In this document: positions 1 to 38,083 of the stretch, one piece after another
Position numbering within the stretch: position 1 is the stretch's first letter
Layout: the number at the start of each line of letters is the position of its first letter
IMG/VR virus record: IMGVR_UViG_2778261536_000006
From: a virus
Lineage: Duplodnaviria > Heunggongvirae > Uroviricota > Caudoviricetes
Length of the DNA: 39,497 nt
Strand: one strand, 5' to 3'
Translations under genes and position numbers: made by a program
The notes under the pieces: generated by a model
What the model was told of the DNA's origin: nothing
The model's input: only the letters and a program-made list of their open reading frames with translations
The model's database searches: none

Positions 1-573
1 ATGTTTTGCGAAGAAAAAGTAGCTCAAATGGCTGCATACCTACTTCTTAAGCGAGGTGGGCGCATGGCATATCTGAAATTGATGAAGTTGCTCTATCTGT
101 CTAACCGCCAGTCGATTTTGAAGCATGGCAGGATGATCGGCGAAGATAGCCTTTACTCTATGAAATTTGGACCAGTCATGTCGAATACGCTGAACTTGAT
201 TCGCGGTAAGGCTGAAGGCATTGGTGACTACTGGTACAACTTGATAGAGACGAACGGGCATAATGTATCGTTGCGTTCAGATCCGAGGGAAATGGATGCA
301 GACGAGGTCTTTGATGAATTGAGTCGTGCAGATATCCGGATTTTAGATGAAATCTATTCTCGGTATGGGCATATGAACCGATTTGATCTCGCAAATATGA
401 CGCATTTAGAAAGCGTTTGTCCAGAGTGGCACGATCCTGGCAATTCTCGTAAGCCTATAGACCTGAAAGAAATGCTGATCAGTGAGGGTAAAAGCGAGGA
501 TGAGGCTAATCGCATAATTGGCAAAATGGAAGAATCTCAGAAACTTAAGGAATTTTCTTTGCAATTATCATGA
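1..573 (+). CDS. Panacea-domain (DUF4065, SocA/GepA-like) phage-associated protein, putative antitoxin
   Basis: 190-aa ORF with LKLMKLLYL and GPV motifs that I recognise as Panacea-like; stop overlaps the next ORF start (ATGA). Confidence 0.5.
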   Translation: MFCEEKVAQMAAYLLLKRGGRMAYLKLMKLLYLSNRQSILKHGRMIGEDSLYSMKFGPVMSNTLNLIRGKAEGIGDYWYNLIETNGHNVSLRSDPREMDADEVFDELSRADIRILDEIYSRYGHMNRFDLANMTHLESVCPEWHDPGNSRKPIDLKEMLISEGKSEDEANRIIGKMEESQKLKEFSLQLS

Positions 574-989
574 CGGATTATCAGCCATACAGGAAAGGAA
601 CTGTGCTTGCCCCAACTGGGCCATGCAATCATCTTCATGTGATTTGTAATGATCCTGTTTATTACCCCGTTAACGATTGTTATTGTGTTTTAGTTGTTAA
701 TATTTCTAGTATCAAGGATGGTGTCCCCCACGATCCGTCTTGCGTCTTGAATTCTGGTGATCATCGCTTTATCAAGCATCCAAGTTATGTTGTTTACGCT
801 GAAGCTATAATTTGGCGAGTGGATAACATGGTTAGAAAGCAGCGATCGGGTGAGATTTCTGTTCATGATGATATGCCAGAAGCTACATTCAATAGAATTC
901 TGGACGGTTTTGATATCTCTGATGAAGTTACGCCAAAGAACCTTAAATTTAAAAATAAATATTGCGTATCATCTATTGATGATGAGTAA
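570..989 (+). CDS. Hypothetical protein, candidate toxin/effector partner of the Panacea-like gene
   Basis: 139-aa ORF whose ATG overlaps the upstream stop by 4 bp, implying translational coupling; no family recognised. Confidence 0.45.
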   Translation: MTDYQPYRKGTVLAPTGPCNHLHVICNDPVYYPVNDCYCVLVVNISSIKDGVPHDPSCVLNSGDHRFIKHPSYVVYAEAIIWRVDNMVRKQRSGEISVHDDMPEATFNRILDGFDISDEVTPKNLKFKNKYCVSSIDDE

Positions 990-1028
990 ACAACAGGAAT
1001 TGTTTCGGTATAACTTCAGGAGTTTTCT

Positions 1029-1202
1029 ATGGAAGATCAAAAAGCAACCAAGCCACAGGTTAAGTTCGACACAATGAAAGCATTCGCAGGTATGGGTGCT
1101 GCTGTTGAAGTTCTGATGAAGGCTGCTCCTAATGCGTTCACTCACGCTACTGTCTCTGGTAAAGAGCAGCAGGGTAAGCTTCGTCGTCGCAAAGCAGCAT
1201 GA
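1029..1202 (+). CDS. Small hypothetical protein (57 aa)
   Basis: ATG at 1029 preceded by AGGAG (1018-1022) with a 6-nt spacer; below the ORF-track length cutoff; followed by a terminator. Confidence 0.35.
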   Translation: MEDQKATKPQVKFDTMKAFAGMGAAVEVLMKAAPNAFTHATVSGKEQQGKLRRRKAA

Positions 1203-1221
1203 TCATAGCTGGTGCTTTTTG

Positions 1222-1248
1222 AAAACCCGCCTTTAGGCGGGTTTTTTA
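1222..1248. terminator. Bidirectional rho-independent terminator
   Basis: AAAACCCGCC-TTTA-GGCGGGTTTTTT: GC stem flanked by an A-run and a T-run, between convergent genes. Confidence 0.7.
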
Positions 1249-1249
1249 T

Positions 1250-1558
1250 TTAGTGATGTTCTTTGCCCTTCTGTTTGCTTGTTCTGACCTGTTCCCACTC
1301 GATACGTCCTTCTTCTCGTCTTTTGTCTATGTATTCCGCAAGATCCTGAATATTGATGCAACGTTTTGCTTTTTGCGATGTGCCGATGCGATATGTTGGA
1401 ACGGGCAACTTACAAGCGTTTGCTTTTGCTTCTGCCGTGGCTGGACTCATGCCAAAGTACTTTTGGCTAACTGCTGAGAGTTCAATGTTAGGGGTATTGA
1501 ATTCAGCCATCAGTAAAAACAAGGTGTTCATAATTTTCTCCATCAAAACCGGCTGCAC
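1250..1558 (-). CDS. PrtN-family (MerR-like HTH) DNA-binding protein, possible excisionase-like regulator
   Basis: 102-aa ORF, last gene of the leftward early operon; N-terminal MNTLFLLMAEF region resembles PrtN-type regulators; start codon uncertain (three in-frame Met). Confidence 0.45.
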   Translation of the reverse strand: MQPVLMEKIMNTLFLLMAEFNTPNIELSAVSQKYFGMSPATAEAKANACKLPVPTYRIGTSQKAKRCINIQDLAEYIDKRREEGRIEWEQVRTSKQKGKEHH

Positions 1559-1567
1559 CCGGGAAAA

Positions 1568-2140
1568 TCATAATTCTGTGCTGGTGGCAGGAATTAATTT
1601 CTGCCAGATAGCGGAAACATATTTTGCCTGATGACGGGCATCGGCCAGGGCGTTGTGCCGTTCGCCATCGAAAGGCATGTCCATTTTGGGGGCGAATCCG
1701 ATGGAACGCCCAAGCGTAACGATCGTGCGTACATCGTGGTCATTCCAGTATGCCCACGGGCAGATTTGTCCTGCTCGCTCATAAGCTCCACGTAAAATTA
1801 CGTTGTCGAAGGTGGCCCCGTTACCCCAGACTTTTAAATATTTTGTATTGTCTGCATGCTGATTAATGAAATGGCTCAGTTCAGAGAGTGCATCGCTGAT
1901 CGACAAAGTATCATCAATACAGATTGCAGCTCGTGCTTCAGGGCTCTGTTTCAACCACCACAGGATGGTATCGCCGTCAGGTGTGGCCCCTTGCTCCATA
2001 GCACTTTCCAGGCTGACAACCGTATAGAATTCTTGTCCGATGTCTCCGGTTTCTGGGGTGAAGAACACCGCGCCAATGGAAACGATTGGTGCATCCTTAT
2101 TTTTCCCCATCGTCTCAAGGTCGATCATTAAGTTGTTCAT
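1568..2140 (-). CDS. DEDD-type 3'-5' exonuclease (DnaQ-like, phage-encoded)
   Basis: 190 aa with N-terminal IDLETMG motif typical of DEDD exonucleases. Confidence 0.6.
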   Translation of the reverse strand: MNNLMIDLETMGKNKDAPIVSIGAVFFTPETGDIGQEFYTVVSLESAMEQGATPDGDTILWWLKQSPEARAAICIDDTLSISDALSELSHFINQHADNTKYLKVWGNGATFDNVILRGAYERAGQICPWAYWNDHDVRTIVTLGRSIGFAPKMDMPFDGERHNALADARHQAKYVSAIWQKLIPATSTEL

Positions 2141-2451
2141 TACTTCACCTCCTGCGTTTCTTTGCTGCTGTGAATTCGCCAGTTACCGACGCCTTCCCAT
2201 TCAAACTGGCGGTTACTAATTCGCGTCCAGCCCCTGCCGAAAAGCAAATCCAGATACCAGTATTTTAAAGTTCTGATAATTGCTCTTACAGTTGGTTTGC
2301 ATCCAGAAGTCTTTGATGCGCAAATAAAGCACCGAGTTATGCTCATGGCCTCTACAAAAGGCCAGATAAACCAAACCCAGATGCAAAGAGCCACGAACAA
2401 CATGAGCGCAATGTTAGCCACTAAGCCAGACCAGTACAGATAATTGCTCAC
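2140..2451 (-). CDS. Small membrane protein, hypothetical
   Basis: 103 aa with a hydrophobic N-terminal segment; overlaps neighbouring genes by 1-4 bp (operon). Confidence 0.4.
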   Translation of the reverse strand: MSNYLYWSGLVANIALMLFVALCIWVWFIWPFVEAMSITRCFICASKTSGCKPTVRAIIRTLKYWYLDLLFGRGWTRISNRQFEWEGVGNWRIHSSKETQEVK

Positions 2452-2687
2452 TGGTTGCCTCCTTTACGGATCTGCGCTGCGATGCGCGAAAAAAAAGACT
2501 CCCGCGTATGACTGTTAAGAGCTGGCGCGAACGCTGCGTTAAGAACGGCAGCATCACAGCCGTCATCGATATAGAGCGCAATTTTTTTCTCCAGGCGCGC
2601 TTTGGCTTCCTGCAACTGCATACCCCGGCACGCACGCGGGATATACTCAGCAATTTGAGCGATAGATTTTTCGTTCTGTTTAAACAT
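2448..2687 (-). CDS. Hypothetical phage protein
   Basis: 79-aa ORF in the operon with overlapping stop/start; no domain recognised. Confidence 0.4.
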   Translation of the reverse strand: MFKQNEKSIAQIAEYIPRACRGMQLQEAKARLEKKIALYIDDGCDAAVLNAAFAPALNSHTRESFFSRIAAQIRKGGNQ

Positions 2688-2883
2688 GCTTCACCTCGAT
2701 AGGCTTGATGCTGTCGATCAGCAGTCGGCGGCGCGTATTTTCTGCAAAGTGGCGGCGTCCGGTTTCTTTGTGGTAAAACTCGTTTTTTCCGACGACCCAC
2801 ATCCGCTTTGTCTGGTGCAGTTTTTTTACCTGCGGACCGTCTCGGGTGATAACAATTCCTGTATGAGTTTTTATCACGCTCAT
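2680..2883 (-). CDS. Hypothetical phage protein
   Basis: 67-aa ORF in the same leftward operon. Confidence 0.35.
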   Translation of the reverse strand: MSVIKTHTGIVITRDGPQVKKLHQTKRMWVVGKNEFYHKETGRRHFAENTRRRLLIDSIKPIEVKHV

Positions 2884-3242
2884 TTCTTATTCTCCGGTGC
2901 TTTTGGCATTACTGCCCAGTGAGTGATATTGACGTTTTCAAGGTCCCCGACCTGAAATGTCCACTGCCATTCTCCGGTTTCTTTTTGTCCCCAGGTGTAC
3001 CAGAGAGAACGCCAGCCAATTAGCCAGCCTTCTCCGTTAGCATCAAATAACAGAACACTTTCATTTGCTGGTGGCAGTTCAGCTGACACTGGTATTATTT
3101 TGTTTTCCAGTGCCGTACATTTAGCTTCAAGCGCATCGAATTTACGTACCAGGTACTCAGCATTTGTTTCGTTCACTTTCAGATCTCGCGGTACACATTT
3201 CCCGCGAAGAAACCCTTCCATTTCGAAAACATTCATGCGCAT
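2880..3242 (-). CDS. DUF551-like phage protein
   Basis: 120 aa with Trp-rich C-terminus ending ITHWAVMPKAPE, resembling the DUF551 signature. Confidence 0.4.
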   Translation of the reverse strand: MRMNVFEMEGFLRGKCVPRDLKVNETNAEYLVRKFDALEAKCTALENKIIPVSAELPPANESVLLFDANGEGWLIGWRSLWYTWGQKETGEWQWTFQVGDLENVNITHWAVMPKAPENKK

Positions 3243-3769
3243 TTGCGTAACTCCGATAACTCGTTAAAACGTTCCATAAACATCCCGTAGGCATGGCCTG
3301 GTGACAGTGGAATAACTTTGAACATCTCTGTCGCCGGGATACCTTCCAGTACAGGCCAGAAAGAGCCATCATCAAGCCCGAGATCGCGGCGTTCGGTTGC
3401 CAGCATAATGAGATCGGCATATTTCACTGGCGTGCTCATAACAGGAGGTAACCCGTATTTCTCACGGATTACGGCGTCTATTTTTTCTTCCATCCGTTTA
3501 TAGTCAGGAAGAAGGCGTTTCAGTGGTGCGGGGATGTCCTGGCAATATGCTTCTGTTGCATCATGCATTAACGCTTCAAAAGCAAATTCCTGCGGTACCA
3601 GCTGGCTGCAAAGCACCGCATGTTGGGCGACGCTGTAGAAGTGTGGAAGATGTCCTGCAAAGCGACAGATATTTGAAAGGGAAACCGCGATATCGTTAAT
3701 AACGATGTCGTCTTTATTTATCCTGTCATAATAAAAATGCTTCCCGGAAAAAGTTTTAATAAATGACAT
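3233..3769 (-). CDS. HD-domain phosphohydrolase (YfdR-like)
   Basis: HD-type motifs; start moved to the internal Met at 3769, which has GGAG 6 nt upstream (track ORF runs to 3796). Confidence 0.6.
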   Translation of the reverse strand: MSFIKTFSGKHFYYDRINKDDIVINDIAVSLSNICRFAGHLPHFYSVAQHAVLCSQLVPQEFAFEALMHDATEAYCQDIPAPLKRLLPDYKRMEEKIDAVIREKYGLPPVMSTPVKYADLIMLATERRDLGLDDGSFWPVLEGIPATEMFKVIPLSPGHAYGMFMERFNELSELRKCA

Positions 3770-3861
3770 TTTGTTCTCCACGTATATGCGCTGCACCGCG
3801 CTGAATTCGGGTAAAAGGAAGCCCTCACCGTCCGGCGATTATTGAGTCAATTACATTTCCA

Positions 3862-4260
3862 TAAATGCCCCCGTAGGGGCGGTTAGTTTCTCCACAAAAC
3901 AGAGAAGAACACCTGCGGTGGCAGCCGCCCGGATGGATTGGGTTATGAGCCCGTCGTCCGGTGATGCTCTTCTCTGTTTTGTAAAAAGGACGGTACCAGC
4001 CGGAAGCAAGGGTACAAGCTGGTACCGCCAAGACTACACACAGCATAAAGTTGTGGTGCCGGGTGCCTCCCGGTGCCTGGCGAAGGTTGCACACCAGGCG
4101 GGTGGGTATCCACAGAAGGTCGACTGTCAGCCTCAACCTTAACCCGCGTGCGCTGAGCCGCATTCACCACAACGCTAAGGATTCTCTCTGGTTGAAAATA
4201 CTTAGCTGTTATGTGCCTGTCTTTTCACCACTTCAGGCTCGGTGGTATCCTTTTAAGCCC
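3862..4260. other. GC-rich, hairpin-dense non-coding island (possible structured RNA)
   Basis: No protein-like ORF on either strand; perfect 15-bp inverted repeat 3894-3908/3968-3982, perfect 10-bp inverted repeat 3991-4000/4018-4027, further stems at 4075-4099 and 4116-4140, GGTGCC x3 at 4055-4077. Confidence 0.4.
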
Positions 4261-4282
4261 GTATACATAAAAGGAAAATCAA

Positions 4283-4528
4283 ATGACTTTTGATGAAAAA
4301 GAACTTGATAATGCAATTAATAAAATCATCGTAACGTCGCTCTTTTCCTGTCTCAGCGACACTCAGCAGAAACAGTTCTACGAATCGGCTTTCAACATGA
4401 TCGAGCGTTGTTGTTTCTGCGATGCCGACGAGTTACCTGAAAAAATCAGGAAACAGTTGGCTGATGCTCTTCGAGTGCGACTTTCTGACCAATTTTCTGA
4501 AATGTACTCTCCGAATTTGGACAAATAG
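4283..4528 (+). CDS. Hypothetical protein (81 aa), antisense to the early-left operon
   Basis: ATG with AAAGGAAAA upstream; overlaps the 3' end of the convergent ORF 4446-4721; coding status uncertain. Confidence 0.3.
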   Translation: MTFDEKELDNAINKIIVTSLFSCLSDTQQKQFYESAFNMIERCCFCDADELPEKIRKQLADALRVRLSDQFSEMYSPNLDK

Positions 4529-4721
4529 AAAAAGGCCATTTCCATTCAGGGTCTGATGGAAAGACTTCAGCCTGTTCCAAAGCACGGCGTAAAGAGAATA
4601 CAACTCCAGCCATAATCTGATGTTTCCCATTGGTCCAGCTATCGCCGCTCTGATCTACAGGAGCGGCTATGTCGTATGACCAAACGACTTCACCACTATT
4701 GTTTAAAATCTGGACTTTCAT
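4446..4721 (-). CDS. Hypothetical early protein (91 aa)
   Basis: ORF in operon orientation with GGAGG 12 nt upstream; overlaps the convergent plus-strand ORF; uncertain. Confidence 0.3.
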   Translation of the reverse strand: MKVQILNNSGEVVWSYDIAAPVDQSGDSWTNGKHQIMAGVVFSLRRALEQAEVFPSDPEWKWPFSICPNSESTFQKIGQKVALEEHQPTVS

Positions 4722-4729
4722 TTTGTTCT

Positions 4730-4951
4730 TTAACCTCCAGATTTCCGCGCATCTAAAGGCGCATTCTCATTTGGTGTGAACTGAATAGTTGTGCTGATAT
4801 TGATTAATGCCCCGACACACAAGACTACGCACTCAGAGCAGATAGCAACTTCATCTTTTCCGCCTTTGGCGATGATTTTTTTTGCCTGCAGCTCGTTTGC
4901 GCCACAAAACGAGCATGTGAAATAACGGTTCATTTGCGCTCTCTTACACAT
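4730..4951 (-). CDS. ClpX-type C4 zinc-finger (ZBD-like) small protein
   Basis: CSFCG...EVAICSECVVLC matches the CxxC...CxxC pattern and spacing of the ClpX N-terminal zinc-binding domain; first gene of the leftward operon. Confidence 0.5.
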   Translation of the reverse strand: MCKRAQMNRYFTCSFCGANELQAKKIIAKGGKDEVAICSECVVLCVGALINISTTIQFTPNENAPLDARKSGG

Positions 4952-5126
4952 AGTATTTAACGAATCATCCGGTCATTCATACGCCACCGGCGGCTACTTC
5001 GTGTTCGTCCTGACTGTTCGTTTTTGACATTTACTGACCGCTTACGACACATGCACCATGCACCGTGTTGCAACTAGATTTTGTTGTAATCCTGTAGTTG
5101 GTCTGGAACAAAAGATAAAATTAAAA

Positions 5127-5163
5127 TGCGATATACGCAAGTAATATTTTGCGAGATGTGCAA
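5127..5163. promoter_or_regulatory. Putative left operator sites (TTGCG/CGCAA half-site motifs)
   Basis: TGCGATATACGCAA (5127-5140) and TTGCGAGATGTGCAA (5149-5163) share half-sites with the cI-cro intergenic sites. Confidence 0.35.
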
Positions 5164-5175
5164 ATTATGGGTGAT

Positions 5176-5196
5176 AAAAAGCCACCTTTCGGTGGC
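5176..5196 (-). terminator. Rho-independent terminator downstream of the repressor gene
   Basis: Minus strand reads GCCACC-GAAA-GGTGGC followed by TTTTT, just 3' of the cI-like stop. Confidence 0.55.
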
Positions 5197-5216
5197 CGAT
5201 GGATGGGATATTGAAG

Positions 5217-5909
5217 TTAATTATGTCTCTTAAGGGTTTGCGACTGACTGATTAAGACCTTTCCAAAGACCATGAATCGGTGTTCGTTTTCGCTAGTAAT
5301 TCCCCATTCACGGTAAATCTGGTTATCAGAAATCACCAGCAGTTTGTCAGGAATCATTTGAAGTCTTTTAACGTATATTTTGTCATCAAAACCAAAGACA
5401 TATATACCATCACCATCAAACTGATTGATGCTGACATCAACGAAGATGAGATCTCCTGGCTCAATGGTTGGACACATACTGTCCCCACGAACGTTGATAA
5501 CTTTGATGTGATTGGCTGGTCGTCCGCCGAACATTGATACAGCATTATCAGTTCTGTATTCGATGGCATGAATCACATCAATGACATCACCGCCCTGGAT
5601 AAGGCCATTTCCCGCACTGGCACTGATATCCAACATTTCAATACGGAACACATCCTTCACCTGCGCAACATCCTCATCATTACTGTTTTTATATACAGTA
5701 TTACTTTTGAGGGCAGAGGTAAAGAGATCAGCAATATCAACACCTAAGCTCTTGGCAATATTACTCAGTGTTTGTTCGGTAAATTGTTTCTGCTTACCCG
5801 TTTCTAAGCGCGAGATGTTCGCCGCATCTACTCCTATTGCTTCAGCGAGATCGGCGATTTTCATGTTCTTCGCTTGGCGAAGTTGTCTGACTCGTTTTCC
5901 TATGTTCAT
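5217..5909 (-). CDS. CI-like phage repressor (HTH-XRE plus S24 LexA-like peptidase domain)
   Basis: 230 aa; N-terminal HTH and C-terminal S24 motifs (GDSM...KRL); divergent from the Cro-like gene. Confidence 0.85.
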   Translation of the reverse strand: MNIGKRVRQLRQAKNMKIADLAEAIGVDAANISRLETGKQKQFTEQTLSNIAKSLGVDIADLFTSALKSNTVYKNSNDEDVAQVKDVFRIEMLDISASAGNGLIQGGDVIDVIHAIEYRTDNAVSMFGGRPANHIKVINVRGDSMCPTIEPGDLIFVDVSINQFDGDGIYVFGFDDKIYVKRLQMIPDKLLVISDNQIYREWGITSENEHRFMVFGKVLISQSQTLKRHN

Positions 5910-5929
5910 GCGTTTATTACATTTCTTTA

Positions 5930-5992
5930 TTGCGTGATAAGCAAATCAACTTGCGCAAAATACTTGCGTGAAATAACATGCATAACGCGCAA
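5930..5992. promoter_or_regulatory. Operator/promoter region between cI-like and cro-like genes
   Basis: TTGCGTGATAAGCAA (5930-5944), perfect palindrome TTGCGCAA (5951-5958) and TTGCG...CGCAA (5964-5992) in the 97-bp divergent intergenic region. Confidence 0.5.
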
Positions 5993-6006
5993 TATTTGGA
6001 GGATAT

Positions 6007-6267
6007 ATGCAATCACCATTACGAAATGTGCGTAAGGCGCATGGTTTCACTTTGCAGCATGTTGCTGCGGGTGTTCAAGTCAATCCAGCGACGTTGAGTC
6101 GTATTGAGAGGCTGGAGCAGATTCCATCTATCGAGCTTGCAGAACGTTTAGCCAATTTTTTTAAGGGTGAAATCAGCGAAATGCAGATTCTTTATCCGGC
6201 ACGTTTTCAATCTAGCCAAAACCAGAATGGGTTTAAACCACAGGAACAGGAGGTGAACCGTGGGTAA
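6007..6267 (+). CDS. Cro-like HTH (XRE family) regulator
   Basis: 86 aa with N-terminal HTH; divergent from repressor; GGAGG 4 nt upstream. Confidence 0.7.
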   Translation: MQSPLRNVRKAHGFTLQHVAAGVQVNPATLSRIERLEQIPSIELAERLANFFKGEISEMQILYPARFQSSQNQNGFKPQEQEVNRG

Positions 6268-6811
6268 GCATCACTGGAAAATAGAAAAACAGCCTGAGTG
6301 GTACGTGAAAGCTGTCAGAAAAACTATCGCGGCGTTGCCGGGTGGTTACGCTGAAGCGGCTGATTGGCTCGATGTAACAGAAAACGCTTTATTCAACCGC
6401 CTTCGTGCAGATGGCGATCAGATTTTCCCGCTGGGATGGGCAATGGTTTTACAGCGTGCTGGTGGCACTCACTTCATTGCTGATGCTGTGGCGCAGTCTG
6501 CAAATGGCGTATTTGTGTCTCTTCCTGACATCGAGGATGTGGACAACGCCGATATCAACCAACGCCTGCTGGAGGTCATTGAACAGATCGGCAGTTATTC
6601 AAAACAGATTCGTTCAGCAATTGAAGACGGTGTAGTGGAACCGCATGAGAAGACAGCAATTAACGATGAGCTGTACCTCTCAATTTCGAAGCTGCAGGAG
6701 CATGCAGCACTGGTCTACAAAATCTTTTGCGTTTCAGAAAGTAGTGACGCCCGCGAGTGTGCAGCTCCGGGCGCCGTGGCGTGTCGTGACTGTGGAGAAA
6801 CTAACGCATGA
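6260..6811 (+). CDS. Putative lysogeny/early regulatory protein (CII-like position)
   Basis: 183 aa, GTG start with AGGAGG 6 nt upstream, immediately after cro; family assignment tentative. Confidence 0.4.
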
Positions 6812-7146
6812 ACAGTTTAACAACACACTACCGTCGCTCGCAACTGATTGCGCTTCCTGTACCGGGTGGAAAAGCGAAGGTGGAGTATTGCTATGCAGTA
6901 AATGTACCAGGTGACAGGGTAATTGTAACCCACAGCTTTGCAGAGTGGGCTGTGGGTGATTTCAACCGGCAAAAGGAGACAGTCCTTTGCGACAAGTTAA
7001 CCGCTGGTTCAAAGATCACTACGGAGTGCCCGTCAGAGTCATTCGTTGGGAGCCGGAAACACAACGGGTTATCTACCTCCGTGAAGGCTATGAGCATGAG
7101 TGCTTCAGCCCGCTCGAACAGTTTCGTCGTAAATTCAGGGAAATAG
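6808..7146 (+). CDS. Hypothetical ORF, uncertain (possible frameshifted gene)
   Basis: 112-aa track ORF with a Ser-rich, low-complexity C-terminal half; an alternative TTG-start ORF 6987-7166 in another frame looks more protein-like. Confidence 0.2.
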
Positions 7147-7155
7147 AGGTCGGTC

Positions 7156-8097
7156 ATGAGCACTAAATTAACCGGCTATGTATGGGATGGTTGCGCAGCG
7201 TCAGGCATGAAATTATCCAGCGTGGCAATTATGGCCCGCCTGGCTGATTTCAGTAATGACGAAGGTGTGTGCTGGCCATCAATTGAAACCATTGCCCGCC
7301 AGATTGGCGCGGGGATGAGTACCGTCAGAACGGCTATCGCACGGCTGGAAGCAGAAGGCTGGTTAACGCGTAAGGCGCGTCGCCAGGGTAACCGCAATGC
7401 GTCGAATGTTTATCAGCTTAACGTTGCGAAGCTTCAGGCAGCGGCATTTTCTCAACTGTCAGATTCTGACCCGTCAAAATCTGACGCATCAAAATCTGAC
7501 CCGTCAAAATTTGATGCGTCGAAATCTGGCAAAAAAGCGGGTTTTCACCCGTCAGAATCTGGCGGGGATCCGTCAGTAAAATCAAAACATGATCCGTCAG
7601 ATAAAAAACCTTCTCGTCCGGACGCTTCGCAACCGGACACGCAGACGGATGAACAGGATTTTTTAACTCGCCATCCTGATGCGGTTGTATTCAGCCCTAA
7701 AAAGCGCCAGTGGGGAACGCAGGATGATTTGACCTGCGCACAGTGGCTCTGGAAAAAAATCATCGCCCTGTACGAGCAGGCTGCCGAATGTGACGGCGAG
7801 GTGGTTCGTCCCAAAGAACCGAACTGGACAGCCTGGGCAAACGAAATTCGCCTGATGTGTGTGCAGGATGGTCGTACTCACAAACAAATCTGCGAGATGT
7901 ACAGCCGCGTCAGCCGCGATCCGTTCTGGTGCCGTAACGTGCTCAGCCCGTCGAAGTTGCGGGAAAAATGGGATGAGCTTTCCCTGCGCTTATCACCGTC
8001 CGTCAGCACGTACACCGAAAAACGCGAAGACCCGTACTTCAAATCCAGTTACGACAACGTGGACTACAGCCAGATCCCGGCAGGATTCAGGGGGTGA
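7156..8097 (+). CDS. Replication initiator (O-like, winged-HTH N-terminus) containing origin iterons
   Basis: 313 aa; HTH-like N-terminal domain; repeat-rich linker encoded by tandem DNA repeats; position after cro/cII as in lambdoid replication modules. Confidence 0.6.
   Translation: MSTKLTGYVWDGCAASGMKLSSVAIMARLADFSNDEGVCWPSIETIARQIGAGMSTVRTAIARLEAEGWLTRKARRQGNRNASNVYQLNVAKLQAAAFSQLSDSDPSKSDASKSDPSKFDASKSGKKAGFHPSESGGDPSVKSKHDPSDKKPSRPDASQPDTQTDEQDFLTRHPDAVVFSPKKRQWGTQDDLTCAQWLWKKIIALYEQAAECDGEVVRPKEPNWTAWANEIRLMCVQDGRTHKQICEMYSRVSRDPFWCRNVLSPSKLREKWDELSLRLSPSVSTYTEKREDPYFKSSYDNVDYSQIPAGFRG
7465..7606 (+). repeat. Iteron array (putative ori) inside the replication initiator gene
   Basis: Four tandem 15-bp units TCTGAC(C/G)C(G/A)TCAAAA at 7465-7524, then a degenerate unit and three spaced CCGTCAG copies to about 7606. 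Confidence 0.55.
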
Positions 8098-8099
8098 TC

Positions 8100-8588
8100 A
8101 TGAGTCTTTTGAATGAAGTTCAGAAATTCATTGAAGCCCATCCGGGGTGTACTTCCGGAGACATTGCGGATGCTTTTGCAGGTTACTCACGGCAGCGCGT
8201 TCTGCAGTCAGCAAGCAAGTTACGTCAGAGTGGGCGTGTGGCTCACCGTTGTGAAGGAGATACACGCAGACATTTCTCGCGCCTGACTGAGAGAGCGCAG
8301 GAGCCGGAACCACAACCAGTTCGTGAAACCAGACCTGTGCGCAATTTCTATGTTGGCACTAACGACCCGCAGGTGATTTTGTGCCTGACTCGCCAGGCGG
8401 AAGAACTGGAGTCCAGGGGCTTATACCGTCGAGCTGCAACGGTGTGGATGGAGGCATTCCGTGAAAGCCACTCCCAGCCAGAACGAAACAATTTTCTGGC
8501 GCATCGTGAGCGGTGCTTACGGAAAAGCAGCAAGCGCGCTGCATCGGGTGAAGAGTGGTATCTGTCAGGGAATTACGTGGGGGCTTAA
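8100..8588 (+). CDS. PerC-family transcriptional regulator-like protein
   Basis: C-terminal AEELESRGLYRRAATVWMEAF resembles the PerC motif; ATG at 8100 with GGGGG 5 nt upstream (track starts at GTG 8094). Confidence 0.45.
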   Translation: MSLLNEVQKFIEAHPGCTSGDIADAFAGYSRQRVLQSASKLRQSGRVAHRCEGDTRRHFSRLTERAQEPEPQPVRETRPVRNFYVGTNDPQVILCLTRQAEELESRGLYRRAATVWMEAFRESHSQPERNNFLAHRERCLRKSSKRAASGEEWYLSGNYVGA

Positions 8589-9241
8589 TGAGTAATAAAT
8601 ATTGCCAGGCGCTGGTGGAACTGCGGAACAAACCAGCCCATGAACTGAAGGAAGTGGGCGATCAGTGGCGCACGCCGGACAACATTTTCTGGGGAATTAA
8701 CACCCTGTTTGGCCCGTTTGTTCTGGATCTGTTCACCGACGGTGATAACGCCAAATGTGCCGCGTATTACACGGCGGAAGACAACGCGCTGGCGCATGAC
8801 TGGTCAGAACGTCTTGCGGAGCTTAAAGGTGCTGCCTTTGGTAATCCCCCATACAGCCGCGCCAGTAAGCATGAGGGGCAATACATCACCGGCATGCGTT
8901 ACATCATGAAACATGCCAGTGCCATGCGTGATAAGGGCGGGCGCTATGTTTTCCTGATCAAAGCTGCCACCAGCGAAGTGTGGTGGCCGGAAGATGCAGA
9001 CCATATTGCTTTTATTCGCGGGCGTATTGGTTTTGAACTGCCTGCCTGGTTTATCCCGAAAGACGAGAAGCAGGTGCCGACAGGCGCTTTCTTCGCTGGT
9101 GCTATTGCTGTTTTCGATAAGACCTGGAAGGGACCGGCAATCAGCTACATCGGGCGCGATGAACTTGAGGCATGTGGTGAGGCGTTTCTGGCGCAGGTTC
9201 GCCAGCAGGCGGAAAAACTGGTCAGGGAGATGGCGGCATGA
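8588..9241 (+). CDS. Phage Dam-like N6-adenine DNA methyltransferase
   Basis: NPPY catalytic motif (FGNPPYS); start taken at ATG 8588, which overlaps the upstream stop. Confidence 0.75.
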   Translation: MSNKYCQALVELRNKPAHELKEVGDQWRTPDNIFWGINTLFGPFVLDLFTDGDNAKCAAYYTAEDNALAHDWSERLAELKGAAFGNPPYSRASKHEGQYITGMRYIMKHASAMRDKGGRYVFLIKAATSEVWWPEDADHIAFIRGRIGFELPAWFIPKDEKQVPTGAFFAGAIAVFDKTWKGPAISYIGRDELEACGEAFLAQVRQQAEKLVREMAA

Positions 9242-9564
9242 CGACGTTAACTCAATGCCAGCAGCAGGTGCTGGATATGCTGATTTCTTATCAGAAAGAA
9301 CGTGGCTTCCCGCCAACCAATCAGGAGGTGGCAACCATGCTGGGATACCGTTCAGTGAATGCAGCGGTGGAGCATCTTCGCGCACTGGAGAAAAAAGGCG
9401 TCATCACGATAAAGCGTGGCGTGGCCCGGGGCATCACGCTTCATACCGCGGTGAAGGACGACGACAGCGAGGCGGTCGGGATTATCCGCGCACTGCTTGC
9501 CGGTGAGGCAAACGCCAGGCTGCGTGCAGCCCACTGGTTACATGAGAGGGGCCTGAAAGTATGA
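9238..9564 (+). CDS. LexA DNA-binding-domain-like protein (no peptidase domain)
   Basis: 108 aa; LTQCQQQVLDML...GFPPTNQEVA...RSVNAAVEHLRALEKKGVI parallels the LexA N-terminal winged helix; ORF ends before any S24 domain. Confidence 0.55.
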   Translation: MTTLTQCQQQVLDMLISYQKERGFPPTNQEVATMLGYRSVNAAVEHLRALEKKGVITIKRGVARGITLHTAVKDDDSEAVGIIRALLAGEANARLRAAHWLHERGLKV

Positions 9565-9950
9565 AGCTAATACTGCCTTTTCCGCCCAGCGTGAACACGT
9601 ACTGGCGACACCCCAACAAAGGGGCGCTTGCAGGTAAGAGCCTGATAAGCGCGGCGGGGCGAAAATTCCAGAGCGCAGCGTGTGCAGCCATCATTGAGCA
9701 GTTACGTCGTCTGCCGAAACCAACGTCGGCACCAGCTTCAGTGGAGATCGTGTTGTTTCCTCCGGATAACCGGCTTCGCGATCTGGACAACTATAACAAG
9801 GCGCTGTTTGACGCCCTGACCCACGCGGGTGTGTGGGTGGACGACAGCCAGGTGAAAAGAATGCTGGTGGAGTGGGGGCCGGTTATCCCGGAAGGGAAGG
9901 TCGAAATCACTATCAGTAAGTACGAGAAAACGGCGGGTGCAGCCGCCTGA
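9561..9950 (+). CDS. rusA: RusA-family Holliday junction resolvase
   Basis: 129 aa with LPFPPSVNTYWRH and DLDNYNKALFDALT motifs characteristic of RusA. Confidence 0.8.
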   Translation: MKLILPFPPSVNTYWRHPNKGALAGKSLISAAGRKFQSAACAAIIEQLRRLPKPTSAPASVEIVLFPPDNRLRDLDNYNKALFDALTHAGVWVDDSQVKRMLVEWGPVIPEGKVEITISKYEKTAGAAA

Positions 9951-9969
9951 TTAAGAGGAGAAACGAAGT

Positions 9970-10779
9970 ATGAATAATCTGATGGTTATTGATGGTATTG
10001 AAGTTCGTCGTGATGCTTATGGGCGTTACAGCCTGAACGATCTGCATCGCGCAGCAGTAGCATCTGGTGCAAATGCCAGAACCAAGGAGCCAGGAAAGTT
10101 TCTTTCCAGCCAACAAACTGTTGAGCTTGTTCATGAATTAACCAACACCCAGAATTTGGGTGTTGACCCGGTGAGTGTGATTCATGGGGGAAATGAACGG
10201 GGAACGTATGTCTGTAAGGAACTGGTGTATGCCTATGCAATGTGGATCAGCCCGTCATTCCATCTGAAGGTGATCCGTACTTTCGATATGGTAACCAGCG
10301 CACCGGAAAAATTATCCGGACAGGCTGCTGACAAGATGCAGGCTGGCGTGATTCTGCTGGACTTTATGCGCCGGGAGTTAAATCTGTCTAACTCATCTGT
10401 GCTTGGGGCCTGTCAGAAACTCCAGGAGGCTGTTGGCTTACCGAATCTGGCACCGCGCTATGCCATTGATGCACCTGCTGACGCGCCTGATGGCTCAAGC
10501 CGCCCGACGCTGTCGCTGAGTGCACTGCTGAAGCAGTATGGTATCCGCCTGACGGCTAATCAGGCATATCACCAGATGGTGAAGCTGGGGATCGTCGAGC
10601 AGCGCGAACGATACAGCCGTACCGGGATTAACAACATCAAAAAATTCTGGTCGCTGACGGCGAAAGGCTGCATGTTCGGCAAGAACATCACCAGTCCCGC
10701 AAATCCGCGTGAGACGCAGCCGCATTTCTTCGAATCCCGATTCCCTGAGCTGTTAAAGCTGCTCGATACCGTTCATTGA
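9970..10779 (+). CDS. KilA-N domain protein (antirepressor-like)
   Basis: 269 aa; N-terminal region (YSLNDLHRA...GTYVCKELVYAYAMWISPSFHLKVIRTF) matches the KilA-N fold signature. Confidence 0.6.
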   Translation: MNNLMVIDGIEVRRDAYGRYSLNDLHRAAVASGANARTKEPGKFLSSQQTVELVHELTNTQNLGVDPVSVIHGGNERGTYVCKELVYAYAMWISPSFHLKVIRTFDMVTSAPEKLSGQAADKMQAGVILLDFMRRELNLSNSSVLGACQKLQEAVGLPNLAPRYAIDAPADAPDGSSRPTLSLSALLKQYGIRLTANQAYHQMVKLGIVEQRERYSRTGINNIKKFWSLTAKGCMFGKNITSPANPRETQPHFFESRFPELLKLLDTVH

Positions 10780-10780
10780 G

Positions 10781-11776
10781 GTGACCGTGAGAGCACTACT
10801 GACCCCTGAAATAGCCCCGCGTATGGGGATTGTATTGTTCAGACCAGGTTCAGAGCTGATGCCCCTGTTTATGCAGGGGCGTGTCCTGCTGGAGCCTGAG
10901 CCGGAACGTTATTCATCTTTCGCCAGTGGTGCCGTTCCGGCGGCATCACAACCGCTGGCGGATGATCCTGCCGTTAGGGCCGTGTTCCGCAATGAGGCAG
11001 TGATCCGTCGTGCTGGTGGCGTGGAATGTCTTGAAAGCTGGTTACTTCGTGAAAAAGGCTGCCAGTGGCCTCATTCCGACTGGCACAGCGAGAACATGAC
11101 CACAATGCGACACGCGCCGGGCGCGATCCGTCTGTGCTGGCACTGCGATAACCAGCTGCGCGATCAGTTCACGGAACGGCTGGAATCAATGGCAACGGAT
11201 AACTGTGCCCGCTGGGTGTTGTCTGTAGTCCGTCTGGATCTCGGTTTTGATGATAACCATGCCGTGACAATGCCGGAACTGTGCTGGTGGCTGATTCGTA
11301 ATGACCTGGCGGATGCCTTACCGGAAAGTGCAGCCCGTAAGGCACTGAGATTACCGAAGCCTGTTGTGCCGTCTGTCACCCGGGAAAGTGACCTTGTGCC
11401 TTCGGTTCCTGCCACCAGCATCATCCAGGATAAGGCGAAAAAGGTGCTGGCGCTGAAAGTGGATCCGGAGTCGCCGGAGTCTTTTATGTTACGCCCAAAA
11501 CGCCGCCGCTGGGTTAATGAAAAGTACACGCGCTGGGTTAAGACACAGCCGTGTGCATGTTGTGGAAAGCCTGCTGATGATCCCCACCACCTGATAGGCC
11601 ACGGTCAGGGTGGAATGGGTACAAAAGCGCATGACCTCTTTGTGTTGCCTTTGTGCAGAAAGCATCACGACGAGCTGCATGCGGATACCGTGGCATTTGA
11701 AGAGAAGTATGGCTCTCAGCTGGAGCTGATATTTCGTTTTATCGATCGTGCGCTGGCAATTGGCGTATTGGCGTAA
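10781..11776 (+). CDS. DUF968 (YdfU-like) protein with C-terminal HNH-like Cys/His motif
   Basis: 331 aa; C-terminal CACCGKPADDPHH...CRKHHDELH; typical position between nin-region genes and Q; GTG start. Confidence 0.6.
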   Translation: MTVRALLTPEIAPRMGIVLFRPGSELMPLFMQGRVLLEPEPERYSSFASGAVPAASQPLADDPAVRAVFRNEAVIRRAGGVECLESWLLREKGCQWPHSDWHSENMTTMRHAPGAIRLCWHCDNQLRDQFTERLESMATDNCARWVLSVVRLDLGFDDNHAVTMPELCWWLIRNDLADALPESAARKALRLPKPVVPSVTRESDLVPSVPATSIIQDKAKKVLALKVDPESPESFMLRPKRRRWVNEKYTRWVKTQPCACCGKPADDPHHLIGHGQGGMGTKAHDLFVLPLCRKHHDELHADTVAFEEKYGSQLELIFRFIDRALAIGVLA

Positions 11777-11789
11777 GTGGAGAACGAGC

Positions 11790-12542
11790 ATGAACCTTGA
11801 AGCCTTACCAAAATATTACTCCCCAAAATCTCCAAAATTGAGCGATGACGCACCGGCGACAGGCTCAGGTGGTTTAACGATTACGGATGTGATGGCTGCG
11901 CAGGGGATGGTGCAGTCGAAAGCACCGCTTGGGTTTGCCTTATTCCTGGCAAAAGTTGGTGTTCAGGATCCTCAATTTGCGATTGAAGGTCTGCTCAATT
12001 ACGCGATGGCACTGGATAACCCGACATTGAACAAATTGAGTGAAGAAACCCGGTTACAGATCATCCCTTACCTTGTGAATTTTGCCTTTGCTGATTATTC
12101 CAGGTCTGCGGCAAGTAAGGCTCGCTGTGAGCATTGTGCTGGTACTGGATTTCATAATGTATTGCGCGAAGTGGTGAAACACTCCAGAAGCGGGGAATCT
12201 GTTATCAAGGAAGAGTGGGTGAAGGAACTATGTCAGCATTGTCATGGTAAGGGAGAAGTCAGCACAGCGTGCAGAGGGTGTAAGGGTAAAGGTATTGTCC
12301 TGGATGAAAAAAGGACCCGGCTTCATGGCACGCCTGTTTATAAGATTTGTGGGCGTTGCAATGGAAACCGGTTTAGCCGTTTACCAACCACACTGGCGCG
12401 GCATCATGTCCAGAAGCTGGTACCAGACCTGACGGATTATCAGTGGTACAAAGGATATGCAGATGTCATTGATAAACTGGTTACAAAGTGCTGGCAGGAA
12501 GAAGCATATGCAGAGATACAATTGAGAAAGGTGACAAGATAA
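11790..12542 (+). CDS. Late-gene antiterminator Q-like protein
   Basis: Four CxxC zinc-finger-like motifs and close resemblance to Qin-prophage QuuQ as I recall it; start at ATG 11790 with GGAG upstream (track ORF starts earlier). Confidence 0.7.
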   Translation: MNLEALPKYYSPKSPKLSDDAPATGSGGLTITDVMAAQGMVQSKAPLGFALFLAKVGVQDPQFAIEGLLNYAMALDNPTLNKLSEETRLQIIPYLVNFAFADYSRSAASKARCEHCAGTGFHNVLREVVKHSRSGESVIKEEWVKELCQHCHGKGEVSTACRGCKGKGIVLDEKRTRLHGTPVYKICGRCNGNRFSRLPTTLARHHVQKLVPDLTDYQWYKGYADVIDKLVTKCWQEEAYAEIQLRKVTR

Positions 12543-12573
12543 ATGGTTTTCGCCGAAGATGACGACATGATGC

Positions 12574-12602
12574 TTGCATTTTTCAAAAAATATGGATAAG
12601 AT
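12574..12602 (+). promoter_or_regulatory. Putative late promoter pR' (Q-dependent)
   Basis: TTGCAT (12574-12579), 17-bp spacer, TAAGAT (12597-12602), just downstream of Q. Confidence 0.45.
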
Positions 12603-12650
12603 TTTCCCAACGATGGGCTTTGTATGTCTACCGTTGATAAGATTTAGGAA

Positions 12651-12672
12651 CCCGCCACTGAGCGGGTTTTTT
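12651..12672 (+). terminator. Rho-independent terminator tR' (short 6S-like late leader)
   Basis: CCCGC-CACTGA-GCGGG followed by TTTTTT, about 50 nt downstream of the putative pR'. Confidence 0.7.
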
Positions 12673-12794
12673 GTACCTGTAAACTTGGTGCAGTACAGTA
12701 AACACGCTGGTGGTCGTGAATACTGACTTTTTATCTTGCTGGATTTTTAGACAAGAGTTATTGGTATGTCATGTTAACCAGAAGGGAAAAAGAC

Positions 12795-12998: not shown

Positions 12999-13148
12999 TG
13001 GCGGTTTCCTGCTGTGAAAATGGGCGGCTGGTGGGTGTTGGTAGCACCTGCCAGCCATTCGCTCATGCTTACTGGTCACAAGCGAACCACGGCCCACTGC
13101 TTTAGCGCAAAAGCAGAGTGAGCCTACCAGAGTTACGCTTACTGATCC

Positions 13149-14201: not shown

Positions 14202-14207
14202 TCTGGT

Positions 14208-14230: not shown

Positions 14231-14276
14231 TTTCCAACACAGCACCCGCAAATATCGCGAGGTGAGAGATGACGAA

Positions 14277-14603: not shown

Positions 14604-14606
14604 TTT

Positions 14607-35848: not shown

Positions 35849-35875
35849 CTTCTCCTGTTTTTACAACAGGAGAAG
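35849..35875 (+). promoter_or_regulatory. Perfect 11-bp stem hairpin overlapping the invertase Shine-Dalgarno
   Basis: CTTCTCCTGTT (35849-35859), loop TTTAC, AACAGGAGAAG (35865-35875); the AGGAG at 35868-35872 lies in the right arm, 8 nt before the ATG. Confidence 0.35.
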
Positions 35876-35880
35876 CACTC

Positions 35881-36444
35881 ATGATTTACGGGTATGTTCG
35901 TGTATCAACAAATCATCAGGATACAGAGTTGCAACGTCTTGCACTTGAGTCAGCTGGCTGTGAGCGAATTTATGAAGAATATGCCAGTGGCAGAACAGCT
36001 AATCGCCCTGTGTTAAAGGAATTAATTACGGTGATGAAAAGTGGAGATGAGTTGATTGTCTGGAAGTTAGATCGGATAGGGAGAAATGTGCTGCATGCGC
36101 TATTGATGTTTCAAAATCTGCACGAAAAAGGTGTTAATTTTCGGAGTATTACAGATGGCGTAGACCTGAAAACAGCAAGTGGTCGCTATAATTTCCGTAA
36201 TATTCTTTCTGCTGCGCAGTATGAATCTGATTTGAATAGCGAGCGAACTTTAGCTGGTTTGGCTATTGCCAGATCCAAAGGCCGGATTGGTGGGCGTAGA
36301 CCGAAGTTTAGCGACGAGCAGTGGCAACAGATGGGAGCGCTCATAGCGGCAGGGAAATCACGGCGTTATGTTGCACGTATCTATAACGTTGGGCTATCAA
36401 CCCTATATAAACGATTTCCTGTTACTGGCATTCAAACGAAATAA
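35881..36444 (+). CDS. Serine DNA invertase (Gin/Pin/Hin/Cin family)
   Basis: 187 aa; N-terminal YGYVRVST with catalytic Ser, resolvase core, C-terminal HTH; adjacent to the invertible fibre segment. Confidence 0.85.
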   Translation: MIYGYVRVSTNHQDTELQRLALESAGCERIYEEYASGRTANRPVLKELITVMKSGDELIVWKLDRIGRNVLHALLMFQNLHEKGVNFRSITDGVDLKTASGRYNFRNILSAAQYESDLNSERTLAGLAIARSKGRIGGRRPKFSDEQWQQMGALIAAGKSRRYVARIYNVGLSTLYKRFPVTGIQTK

Positions 36445-36587
36445 TTTAAAAGCAATTTAAAGAGTTATTTGTCTAATGTTGGAAGCCGCAGCCACGTCGT
36501 ATGCAAGAACGTGCTGCGGCTGGCTGGCGAACTTTCGATAGTGCGAGTATTGAATGATTTCCAGCCGTTACCGATTTTACGTGTTAA

Positions 36588-36836
36588 TTAGTGAACAAAC
36601 CACTCGTCAGCAGATTCCCAGGTATCTTTCAGAGTCTCCTGAACAAAAGTTTTTGCAGAATCCTTATCTGCGGTGCGTGTAACAGAAAGGCCATCGTTGC
36701 TGGTGGCTTTTACGATCACCTCTACATCGTCATAACGTTTACTGATGCGTCGGGTTAATTCTTCCTTTAACGCATCCACAGCACCGGTTGGCATTTTAGT
36801 CATTTTTTCTTTGGCTATGCAGATTTCAATACGCAT
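36588..36836 (-). CDS. DinI-family protein
   Basis: 82 aa starting [11 protein letters not shown] with C-terminal [16 protein letters not shown], closely resembling DinI; two SOS boxes upstream. Confidence 0.75.
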
Positions 36837-36849
36837 AAAAGTCCCTCTA

Positions 36850-36901
36850 TACTGTGTTTGTATACAGTATTATTTTTAACTGTATAGATAAACAGTGTCA
36901 A
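36850..36901 (-). promoter_or_regulatory. Tandem LexA (SOS) boxes overlapping a promoter for the DinI-like gene
   Basis: TACTGTGTTTGTATACAGTA (36850-36869) and AACTGTATAGATAAACAGTG (36878-36897), both CTGT-N8-ACAG; minus-strand TTGACA at 36896-36901 with an A/T-rich -10 about 17 bp downstream. Confidence 0.7.
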
Positions 36902-37995
36902 GAGGCCTTATTTCTGCTCCTTTGGAGCTCTTCAAAACGATTATGTAAAGATTTCGGATACAGTTCGGTATATACCTGCCATAGCACGTTTAATGAACGA
37001 TGCCCTGTAACCTGGGCGACTTCCTCAATACTAAAACCAGCCTCAAATAAGCGACTTGCCCCTTCTCTACGCAAATCATGGTATCGCAGATCTTTAATAC
37101 CTAATTTGCTTCTTACCCTCTGGAATCCCGCAGTAACAGAAGTGCTGTTATATGGAAAAATGAATTCTGATTTTTTGGGTTGTCGTTGGACGATATCCCA
37201 GGCTTCCCCAAGCAAGGCTACTTTCATATGGTTGCCTTCCTTTTTACGTGGATCTTTCCTGTCTCTTACGAGTATGGATTTTTGTTCCTGATCGAGATCC
37301 TCCCATCGTAATCGGCATACTTCACCGATTCGCATACATGACCACACAGAAAATTTGAGGATATCAACGAACGGAATTTTTGAGCATTTATGTGTAGATC
37401 GTTGTTGAAGACCTTCAATGAGCATGTCCAGTTCATCAGATGCCGGTCTACGATTACGACGATTTGATTTACCAATTAAACCAAGTTTAAGTAGATATGG
37501 ACGAGCGGCTTTTGCTGGGTTTGATGTGTAATTAATTCCATATACAGGTTTGGCAGCATCCAGAACACTGCCAAGATAACTAACATCGTGGCTAACTGTA
37601 GCTGGACCTGCACCAGCGTTGTTTCTTAGCCTGCAATGTTCAATTACGTCATTTTCTGTCAGTTCAGATAGTTTGATCGCGGAGATGTCACTATCCATAA
37701 GCAGTTCCAGCACATATCTTTTAGTACGGCCTGCTTTACCTCCGGCATTTGGGTCATTTAAATATTTGTGTAGTAAGTCACGGACTGTAAGTCCGTCAAC
37801 TGCATTTGATGATGGAATGCCATATAGATCTAATTCCATCACTTTCTGTGTGCCCCATGTTTTGGCATGAGCATGTTTAGGGAATGTTTTACTTTCCCTG
37901 TAAGTGATAACACCTTTTTCTTTGATAATCACATTACAGCGATAGCGTGGTGTGCCATCGGATTTTAGTCGTTTCTCTATGTTATAGTACGCCAT
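36898..37995 (-). CDS. Tyrosine integrase (DusA-associated type)
   Basis: 365 aa with C-terminal tyrosine-recombinase motifs; start is 88 bp from the dusA start codon, transcribed divergently. Confidence 0.85.
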   Translation of the reverse strand: MAYYNIEKRLKSDGTPRYRCNVIIKEKGVITYRESKTFPKHAHAKTWGTQKVMELDLYGIPSSNAVDGLTVRDLLHKYLNDPNAGGKAGRTKRYVLELLMDSDISAIKLSELTENDVIEHCRLRNNAGAGPATVSHDVSYLGSVLDAAKPVYGINYTSNPAKAARPYLLKLGLIGKSNRRNRRPASDELDMLIEGLQQRSTHKCSKIPFVDILKFSVWSCMRIGEVCRLRWEDLDQEQKSILVRDRKDPRKKEGNHMKVALLGEAWDIVQRQPKKSEFIFPYNSTSVTAGFQRVRSKLGIKDLRYHDLRREGASRLFEAGFSIEEVAQVTGHRSLNVLWQVYTELYPKSLHNRFEELQRSRNKAS

Positions 37996-38013
37996 TACAC
38001 GACCTCGTTATTT

Positions 38014-38051
38014 CGGGTTCCCATAAAACGTGGGAACCTGTGCGGGAACCT
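38014..38051. promoter_or_regulatory. GGGAACC repeat cluster between integrase and dusA (possible arm-type/regulatory sites)
   Basis: GGGTTCCC (38016-38022, inverted) plus two direct GGGAACC copies (38032-38038, 38044-38050) in the int 5' region / attR zone. Confidence 0.35.
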
Positions 38052-38083
38052 AACGCGAGAAAAATAGCCTGAAATGTTCAAAA

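Follow-up and report, generated by a model that had tools for sequence, protein, structure and literature searches.

The closest described relatives of the element analyzed here are the SfV-like phages (SfV, SfI, SfII, SfIV, ST64B and phiP27). The group has been defined as lambdoid Myoviridae (PMC3603311). By electron microscopy (EM), SfIV particles have an isometric head of 55 nm and a contractile tail of 101 nm, and both types of head genes described for the group are of the HK97 family (PMC3851460). Elements with dusA-specific integrases have also been described, and they exchange the 5′ end of dusA for their own sequence (Farrugia et al. 2015, PMC4482086). The window, that is, the whole stretch of 39,497 nucleotides from the IMG/VR virus record IMGVR_UViG_2778261536_000006, very probably holds one complete or near-complete temperate SfV-like lambdoid myovirus genome of ~38.4 kb, integrated in the 5′ end of dusA of Escherichia coli. 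The main value of the analysis is a clean annotation, in which the element is placed among the SfV-like phages, its right boundary is set within dusA, and cos and an invertible fibre switch are mapped.

An earlier, sequence-only reading of this DNA had asked for a comparison with SfV-like genomes, which reveals 96–99% DNA identity over 21–31 kb. Phage vB_EcoM-720R4 (ON470603; hereafter 720R4), on which a literature search found no paper, aligns over 31.4 kb of the window with 98–99% identity, and SfIV and SfV align over 25 kb and 21 kb, respectively, with 96–98%. Among complete E. coli genomes, 38 contain 80% or more of the window's first 25 kb. The open reading frame (ORF) listing and Pfam scans (66 candidate genes) describe an uninterrupted series of phage genes with host DNA after it, and no tRNA genes were found in the window. 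Every window protein was compared by tblastn with Mu, HK97, lambda, SfV and 720R4. Together with Pfam, these searches resolve three parts, namely lambdoid control and lysis, an HK97-type head and a Mu-type contractile tail, so that the three modules that the sequence-only reading had proposed are all present in the order it gave, with strong family matches. The same architecture is found in the Shigella serotype-converting phages SfV, SfIV, SfII and SfI. Because the SfV-like relatives share the three-part design, it is a known, old and stable architecture of the lineage rather than a recent recombinant of three sources. Though real, the layout is ordinary and, as the one already described for the SfV-like group, is not novel; the small cargo genes, to which any possible fresh interest is confined, are of modest novelty at best.

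The right boundary of the prophage was located by aligning the int–dusA region of the window to native K-12 dusA and to the left junction of the related prophage of E. coli 1217KP. The tyrosine integrase gene (36898–37995, minus strand; PF00589) lies 88 bp from the start of dusA at 38084. Up to position 38179 the sequence is non-native and phage-type, including the dusA start codon and ~96 nt of the coding region, and identity with native K-12 dusA begins at the 8-bp ATGCTCGA core (38180–38187). At the left junction of 1217KP the reverse arrangement is seen, with native dusA as far as the ATGCTCGA core and phage DNA thereafter. Because the match to native dusA starts at this core, the right prophage end is placed at ~38187, and the last segment up to this position consists of a phage-supplied dusA promoter and the first ~100 nt of dusA. 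The host chromosome follows (38188–39497, plus strand) with the rest of dusA (to 39121) and pspG, recognized by the Pfam families Dus and PspG and arranged in the K-12 gene order. An integrase that abuts the 5′ end of dusA and an element-supplied dusA 5′ end are both shared with the described dusA-specific elements, and the int–dusA junction occurs, at a query coverage of at least 80%, in 634 of the 5426 E. coli genomes searched.

The left boundary falls outside the window. The native 5′ remnant of dusA was observed only in the related 1217KP genome, whereas the window ends short of it; from the 1217KP locus we infer a left attachment (att) site ~254 bp upstream of window position 1. The extent of 1–38083 given by the sequence-only reading is therefore to be corrected at both ends, to the att core at 38180–38187 inside dusA on the right and probably to ~254 bp beyond the window on the left. 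Since the first ~100 nt of dusA and the sequence upstream are phage-supplied, the DusA N-terminus and promoter in the lysogen are phage-encoded; several positions of the segment 38084–38187 are unlike native dusA. The alternative of a circularly permuted phage genome was considered as well and was rejected, because host DNA with dusA and pspG comes after the integrase.

The packaging and head genes are arranged on the plus strand as in HK97. An HNH endonuclease (15643–15993; Pfam, 37% identical to HK97 gp74) is followed by the P27-family small terminase subunit TerS (16110–16613; Pfam), the large terminase subunit TerL (16610–18343; 26% identical to HK97), the portal (18537–19778; 32%), an S78 prohead protease (19720–20406; 37%) and the major capsid protein (20421–21626; PF05065), which is 26% identical to the HK97 capsid over 170 residues and has the capsid of the HK97-family RcGTA as its closest PDB match by sequence. 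A 66-aa ORF, a gp6-like connector, and head-closure, Neck1 and tail-terminator genes (Pfam, PHROGs) extend downstream of the capsid gene on the same strand to 23662. The head module predicted from the letters alone, with the order HNH, TerS, TerL, portal, protease and capsid, is thus recovered, at 26–37% identity to HK97 gp2–gp5 and gp74. A separate scaffold gene is absent from the module, in agreement with the HK97 layout. Because the end of the linear SfV genome maps to window position 16051 in the DNA alignment, we infer that cos lies near 16051/16052, in the 116-bp gap between the HNH and TerS genes. The order HNH, cos, TerS, TerL, portal, S78 protease, capsid, gp6-like connector and head closure corresponds to that of HK97, whereas the P27-family TerS and the contractile, not siphoviral, tail of the window differ from it. 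The head-closure, neck and tail-terminator genes join the head and tail modules without a gap. Within this joint, the C-terminal half of the Neck1/tail-completion gene (22785–23101) shows only ~60% amino acid identity to all four close relatives (SfV, SfIV, 720R4 and the 1217KP prophage), with flanks at 97–99%, and this divergent patch is a very local replacement.

The tail genes, also on the plus strand, run colinear with Mu. They begin at 23671 with DUF2635 (42% identical to Mu gp38) and the sheath (23825–25321; 36% identical to Mu gpL, best PDB match E 1e-80). Pfam places the tube and the tail assembly chaperone between the sheath and the tape measure (26082–27983); all three stand where they are expected, although tblastn detects none of them against Mu. 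The DNA circulation protein (28593–29966; DNA_circ_N, Mu N) is 42% identical to its Mu counterpart at the N-terminus only. The baseplate genes, assigned by Pfam and colinear with Mu gp43–gp48, extend to 33635 and comprise the GpP hub (35% identical to Mu), Gp45 (27%), GP46 (45%), Baseplate_J or gp47 (30%) and Gp48 (30%). The sequence-only reading had also described a Mu-type tail from sheath to fibre plus an invertase, and this description stands, with colinear homologues of Mu gp38–gp48 at 27–45% identity and a Gin-like invertase at 51%. The window shares with Mu this series of genes, a Gin-type invertase, and an invertible segment with the constant part of the fibre outside it and the alternative tips and chaperones inside. 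It differs in that the Mu transposase, the Mu ends and a Mu-type head are not in the window and in that the invertible segment measures ~1.86 kb, against 3 kb in Mu. The tail genes of SfIV are ~98% identical to those of the window, and its EM shows a contractile tail, so that close relatives have in effect already withstood the refutation by non-contractile particles that the sequence-only reading had named.

The fibre gene (33639–34430, plus strand; Pfam) has a constant N-terminal part from 33639 to about 33935. Two arms of a 25-nt imperfect inverted repeat (33923–33947 and 35790–35814), which resembles invertase crossover sites when compared by eye with Mu gix, delimit the region that follows. 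The left arm lies ~99 codons into the fibre gene, and the right arm overlaps the start of an antisense alternative tip. Between the arms, the first fibre C-terminus and a tfa gene are on the plus strand (Pfam), and a second chaperone gene, tfa′ (34995–35435; Pfam), and a second fibre C-terminus (35457–35804) are on the minus strand. A serine DNA invertase of the Gin/Cin/Pin type (35881–36444, plus strand; Resolvase and HTH_7 domains, 51% identical to Mu Gin) lies next to the right arm. In E. coli ETEC1703 the interior of the segment aligns in reverse, with flanks (33001–33937 and 35795–36600) colinear with the window. These alignments show that the segment at about 33937–35795 is invertible; because the interior is reversed and the flanks are colinear, the switch has flipped in nature.

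A lambda-type backbone of immunity, replication, Q and lysis had been claimed as well, and Pfam recovers cI, cro, CII, the O-like gene, Q and the holin in this order, with the endolysin, recognized by a PDB match, after the holin. The cI repressor (5217–5909, minus strand; helix-turn-helix and S24 domains, Pfam) is divergent from cro (6007–6267, plus strand; Pfam). Candidate 15-mer operators of the form TTGCG-N6-GCAA are found at 5126, 5149, 5930 and 5978, on both sides of cI, and with at most one mismatch three of the nine matches in the window fall within the 205 bp flanking cI (5126–5163 and 5930–5992). These sites are candidates for the left and right operators, OL and OR. The early-right operon (6260–12542, plus strand; Pfam) contains, in order, CII, YmfM, the O-like gene, PerC, Dam, a LexA protein with the DNA-binding domain only, RusA, KilA-N, DUF968 and Q. 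CII/CP76 (6260–6811) is assigned by Pfam, the O-like replication protein (7156–8097) is 31% identical to lambda O, and antiterminator Q (11748–12542; PF03589, E 1e-53) is 34% identical to lambda Q.

The early-left operon (1250–4951, minus strand) is assigned by Pfam and by 95–100% amino acid identity to genes of SfV and 720R4. It includes a PrtN-family, excisionase-like gene (1250–1531), a 3′–5′ exonuclease (1568–2140; both Pfam), small ORFs, DUF551, a YfdR 5′-deoxynucleotidase and, as the first gene left of cI, a 73-aa ClpX zinc-finger ORF (4730–4951). The latter, a C4 zinc finger, and the LexA DNA-binding protein, which comprises 108 aa without a peptidase domain (9238–9564, plus strand), are two single-domain, decoy-like ORFs that might modulate ClpXP or SOS-box regulation. 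Compared with lambda, the order cI/cro, CII, O, nin-like region, Q and S/R/Rz is retained; by contrast, no N, P, exo/bet/gam or lambda virion genes were identified in the window, and attP has the putative xis on one side and int on the other instead of lying beyond int. Because attP takes this position, the PrtN-like gene and the integrase stand at opposite ends of the prophage.

In the lysis cassette, a holin of the lambda S family (14262–14603, plus strand; Pfam) precedes an endolysin (14607–15083, plus strand) that is 88% identical to lambda R and matches PDB 1AM7 with E 5e-96. The endolysin gives no Pfam or NCBIfam match even at E≤1, and its identity was settled by the PDB sequence search; family scans alone would miss it. 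The prediction of a lambda R-like endolysin is therefore accurate. That of lambda-type lysis as a whole stands for holin and endolysin but not for the Rz/Rz1 spanins (15067–15616, plus strand; LysC family), which match the Mu gp23 region (Rz 27%, Rz1 48%) and not lambda Rz. Such Mu-like spanins beside a lambda-like endolysin indicate a mosaic joint within the cassette.

The comparison with individual relatives separates the old three-part design from recent module swaps. Judging from these alignments, recent mosaicism within the family is found in the immunity region, the portal–capsid type, the tail assembly chaperone and tape measure type, the fibre tips and the integration module. The immunity region (about 4743–6231) is common to 1217KP and unlike those of SfV, SfIV and 720R4. 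The portal, protease, capsid, chaperone and tape measure are of the SfIV/720R4 type, whereas the SfV portal/protease/capsid set differs (25–27% identity), as do its chaperone and tape measure. Phage 720R4 shares the head type, the chaperone and tape measure type, the gene in the tape-measure slot (orf173, below), the baseplate and the early-right and lysis genes, but differs in the immunity region (4743–6737) and in the variable part of the fibre, and its record is without the PanA pair described below, the invertase, DinI and the integrase.

The integration module consists of the dusA-specific integrase and a DinI-like protein (36588–36836, minus strand; PF06183, E 1e-19), not of the SfV int/gtr cassette. 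The integrase targets dusA and is only 22% identical to SfV Int. The region from fibre to int contains the invertase and DinI only, and none of its genes matches the SfV gtr region; the gtrA-gtrB-gtr(type) O-antigen cassette is absent from the window. Unlike the SfV-type serotype converters, the window thus carries an invertase, an invertible fibre segment and DinI. The invertase–DinI–integrase block is missing from the SfV, SfIV, 720R4 and 1217KP references. The siphoviral lambdoid mEp460, by contrast, is 97% identical in DNA over dinI–int and 96% over much of 1016–14264. Such exchange of the whole control and integration module with siphoviral lambdoids illustrates modular phage evolution, in a textbook manner. 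The 1217KP prophage itself, the closest chromosomal relative (locus L002, 29475–31209 and 48650–49851), is decayed, with a frameshifted TerL, a truncated invertase and IS66 in the place of DinI and int.

All compared genes of the window align at full length with their 720R4 or 1217KP homologues by tblastn, so no frameshift is apparent, and the prophage is apparently intact. Several points weigh against an intact SfV-like lambdoid myovirus. N proteins diverge fast, and no N-type antiterminator was detected when the early-left ORFs were compared with lambda and HK97 N (tblastn, 1e-3; nut sites not searched). No helicase loader of the lambda P or DnaC type was identified. Because both are lacking among the identified genes, early regulation and replication are only loosely lambda-like. 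The similarity to HK97 is distant (26–37%), and at 26% identity the cross-link residues of the capsid cannot be aligned with confidence. Inducibility and particle morphology are carried over by analogy from relatives, the designation of the PrtN-like gene as an excisionase is a guess, and the left att site lies beyond the window.

These points bear most directly on the possibility that the element is a cryptic, defective remnant unable to yield phage, comparable to e14 and further domesticated prophages of E. coli. In favour of such a remnant, attL is not visible in the window, and the related 1217KP copy is lesioned in TerL, the invertase and the IS66-bearing region. It is nevertheless improbable: all structural, lysis, regulatory and integration genes are full-length and 95–100% identical to genes of isolated phages, and neither insertion sequence (IS) elements nor pseudogene-like breaks are seen in the ORF map. 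The contrast between Mu-like tail genes and a lambdoid remainder could suggest a lambdoid prophage juxtaposed to a separate Mu-like prophage or tailocin cluster, but two adjacent elements are very improbable indeed, since SfV and SfIV package this uninterrupted run of head and tail genes as a single cos-ended genome, a Mu transposase, Mu ends and a second integrase are all missing, a single att pair at dusA encloses everything, and the head-closure, neck and tail-terminator genes bridge the modules without a gap.

As a single temperate SfV-like phage, the element would maintain lysogeny through the cI/cro switch and its flanking operator-like repeats, and induction by SOS/RecA would be expected because cI carries an S24 autopeptidase domain. 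The O-like protein would initiate replication, and antitermination by Q would switch on one long late transcript that spans the methylase cargo, S/R/Rz/Rz1, the HNH-assisted cos terminase, the HK97-type head and the Mu-type sheath, tube and baseplate. The head genes comprise the protease and a capsid protein whose N-terminal region would be delta-like, and no separate scaffold gene. The Gin-like invertase would flip the ~1.86-kb segment and thereby swap the C-terminal receptor-binding part of the fibre together with its assembly chaperone, so that host range alternates. The integrase is proposed to recombine at the ATGCTCGA-containing dusA core, with the phage providing a replacement dusA 5′ end and with attP located between the putative PrtN-like excisionase gene and int. 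The cargo genes (PanA and its MazF-fold partner, the orphan methyltransferase, YmfR, the secreted ORFan and DinI) may serve accessory functions in the lysogen or against host defences.

The four cargo slots named by the sequence-only reading are all occupied (1–1202, 12771–14201, 18355–18537 and 28015–28536), and DinI is a further cargo gene that it did not list. The slot between Q and the lysis genes (12771–14224, plus strand) contains a 75-aa ORF (orf75), an orphan N6/N4 DNA methyltransferase (13149–14201, plus strand; PF01555, E 2e-42; PADLOC MTase_II, E 3e-152) and a terminator (14208–14224). PADLOC detects no partner nuclease for this type II-like methyltransferase. The cargo is also found in SfV, as orf47/orf48; because the methyltransferase is conserved there, it has long been established in the slot. 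At the TerL/portal junction, ymfR (18355–18537, plus strand) encodes a 60-aa two-helix membrane protein (phrog_502, labelled moron). It is missing from SfV, 720R4 and 1217KP have it together with the alternative portal type, and the TerL/portal gap of SfIV is 193 bp, equal to that of the window. Since ymfR accompanies this type of portal, it may be a constant component of the alternative portal module.

The slot between the tape measure and DNA circulation genes contains orf173, a 173-codon ORF (28015–28536, plus strand; phrog_5586) encoding a secreted ORFan. Its probable start is at 28048, which gives a product of ~162 aa with a signal peptide, and the local GC content is ~41%. The gene has no Pfam, NCBIfam or PADLOC match, a scan for promoters and terminators around it found none, the predicted structure of the product is unusable (predicted local distance difference test, pLDDT, 40), and its homologues are confined to Escherichia and Shigella. 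Among the relatives, the insert of ~0.6 kb (about 27968–28640) is found only in 720R4. SfV and SfIV have no gene at this position and 1217KP has an unrelated one, which marks it as a true swap slot.

At the left edge, the first cargo gene (1–573, plus strand) encodes a PanA antitoxin candidate with a SocA_Panacea domain (PF13274, E 2e-19). It overlaps by 4 bp the gene of a 139-aa partner (570–989, plus strand), a putative toxin PanT. The partner matches no Pfam family, but its AlphaFold2 model (pLDDT 88) predicts a MazF-like fold: the top 50 PDB fold matches are all MazF, of which the best is weak (E 4.5e-3, TM scores 0.49/0.61). A block at 1029–1246 (plus strand) with a 57-aa ORF (orf57; phrog_2741) follows, and a strong hairpin terminator (1221–1246) closes the cargo. 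The PanA block (1–1280) occurs in E. coli 1217KP and is missing from SfV, SfIV and 720R4. PADLOC returned no match for the PanA pair, orf57, orf173 or orf75, and NCBIfam gave nothing useful for the cargo genes.

Homologues of the partner are found in Enterobacterales, Vibrio and Shewanella. PanA and a partner of 132–139 aa are kept as a two-gene unit in Vibrio, Shewanella and Proteus, three distant cases in unrelated prophages or islands. The Panacea (DUF4065) protein and a variable partner thus form a conserved unit of two genes, as in PanAT systems, and on the structural model the two genes fit a PanAT toxin–antitoxin pair with an RNase-fold toxin (PMC8832971). We tentatively consider, as a doubtful possibility, that an uncharacterised PanAT family moves as a two-gene cassette among unrelated prophages and islands of Enterobacterales, Vibrio and Shewanella, and may act as a prophage-borne abortive-infection defence, and that the ORFan of the tape-measure slot is a lysogen-conversion or exclusion factor. 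In the retrieved relative loci L010–L015, the cassette of PanA and its partner lies at about 2440–3410.

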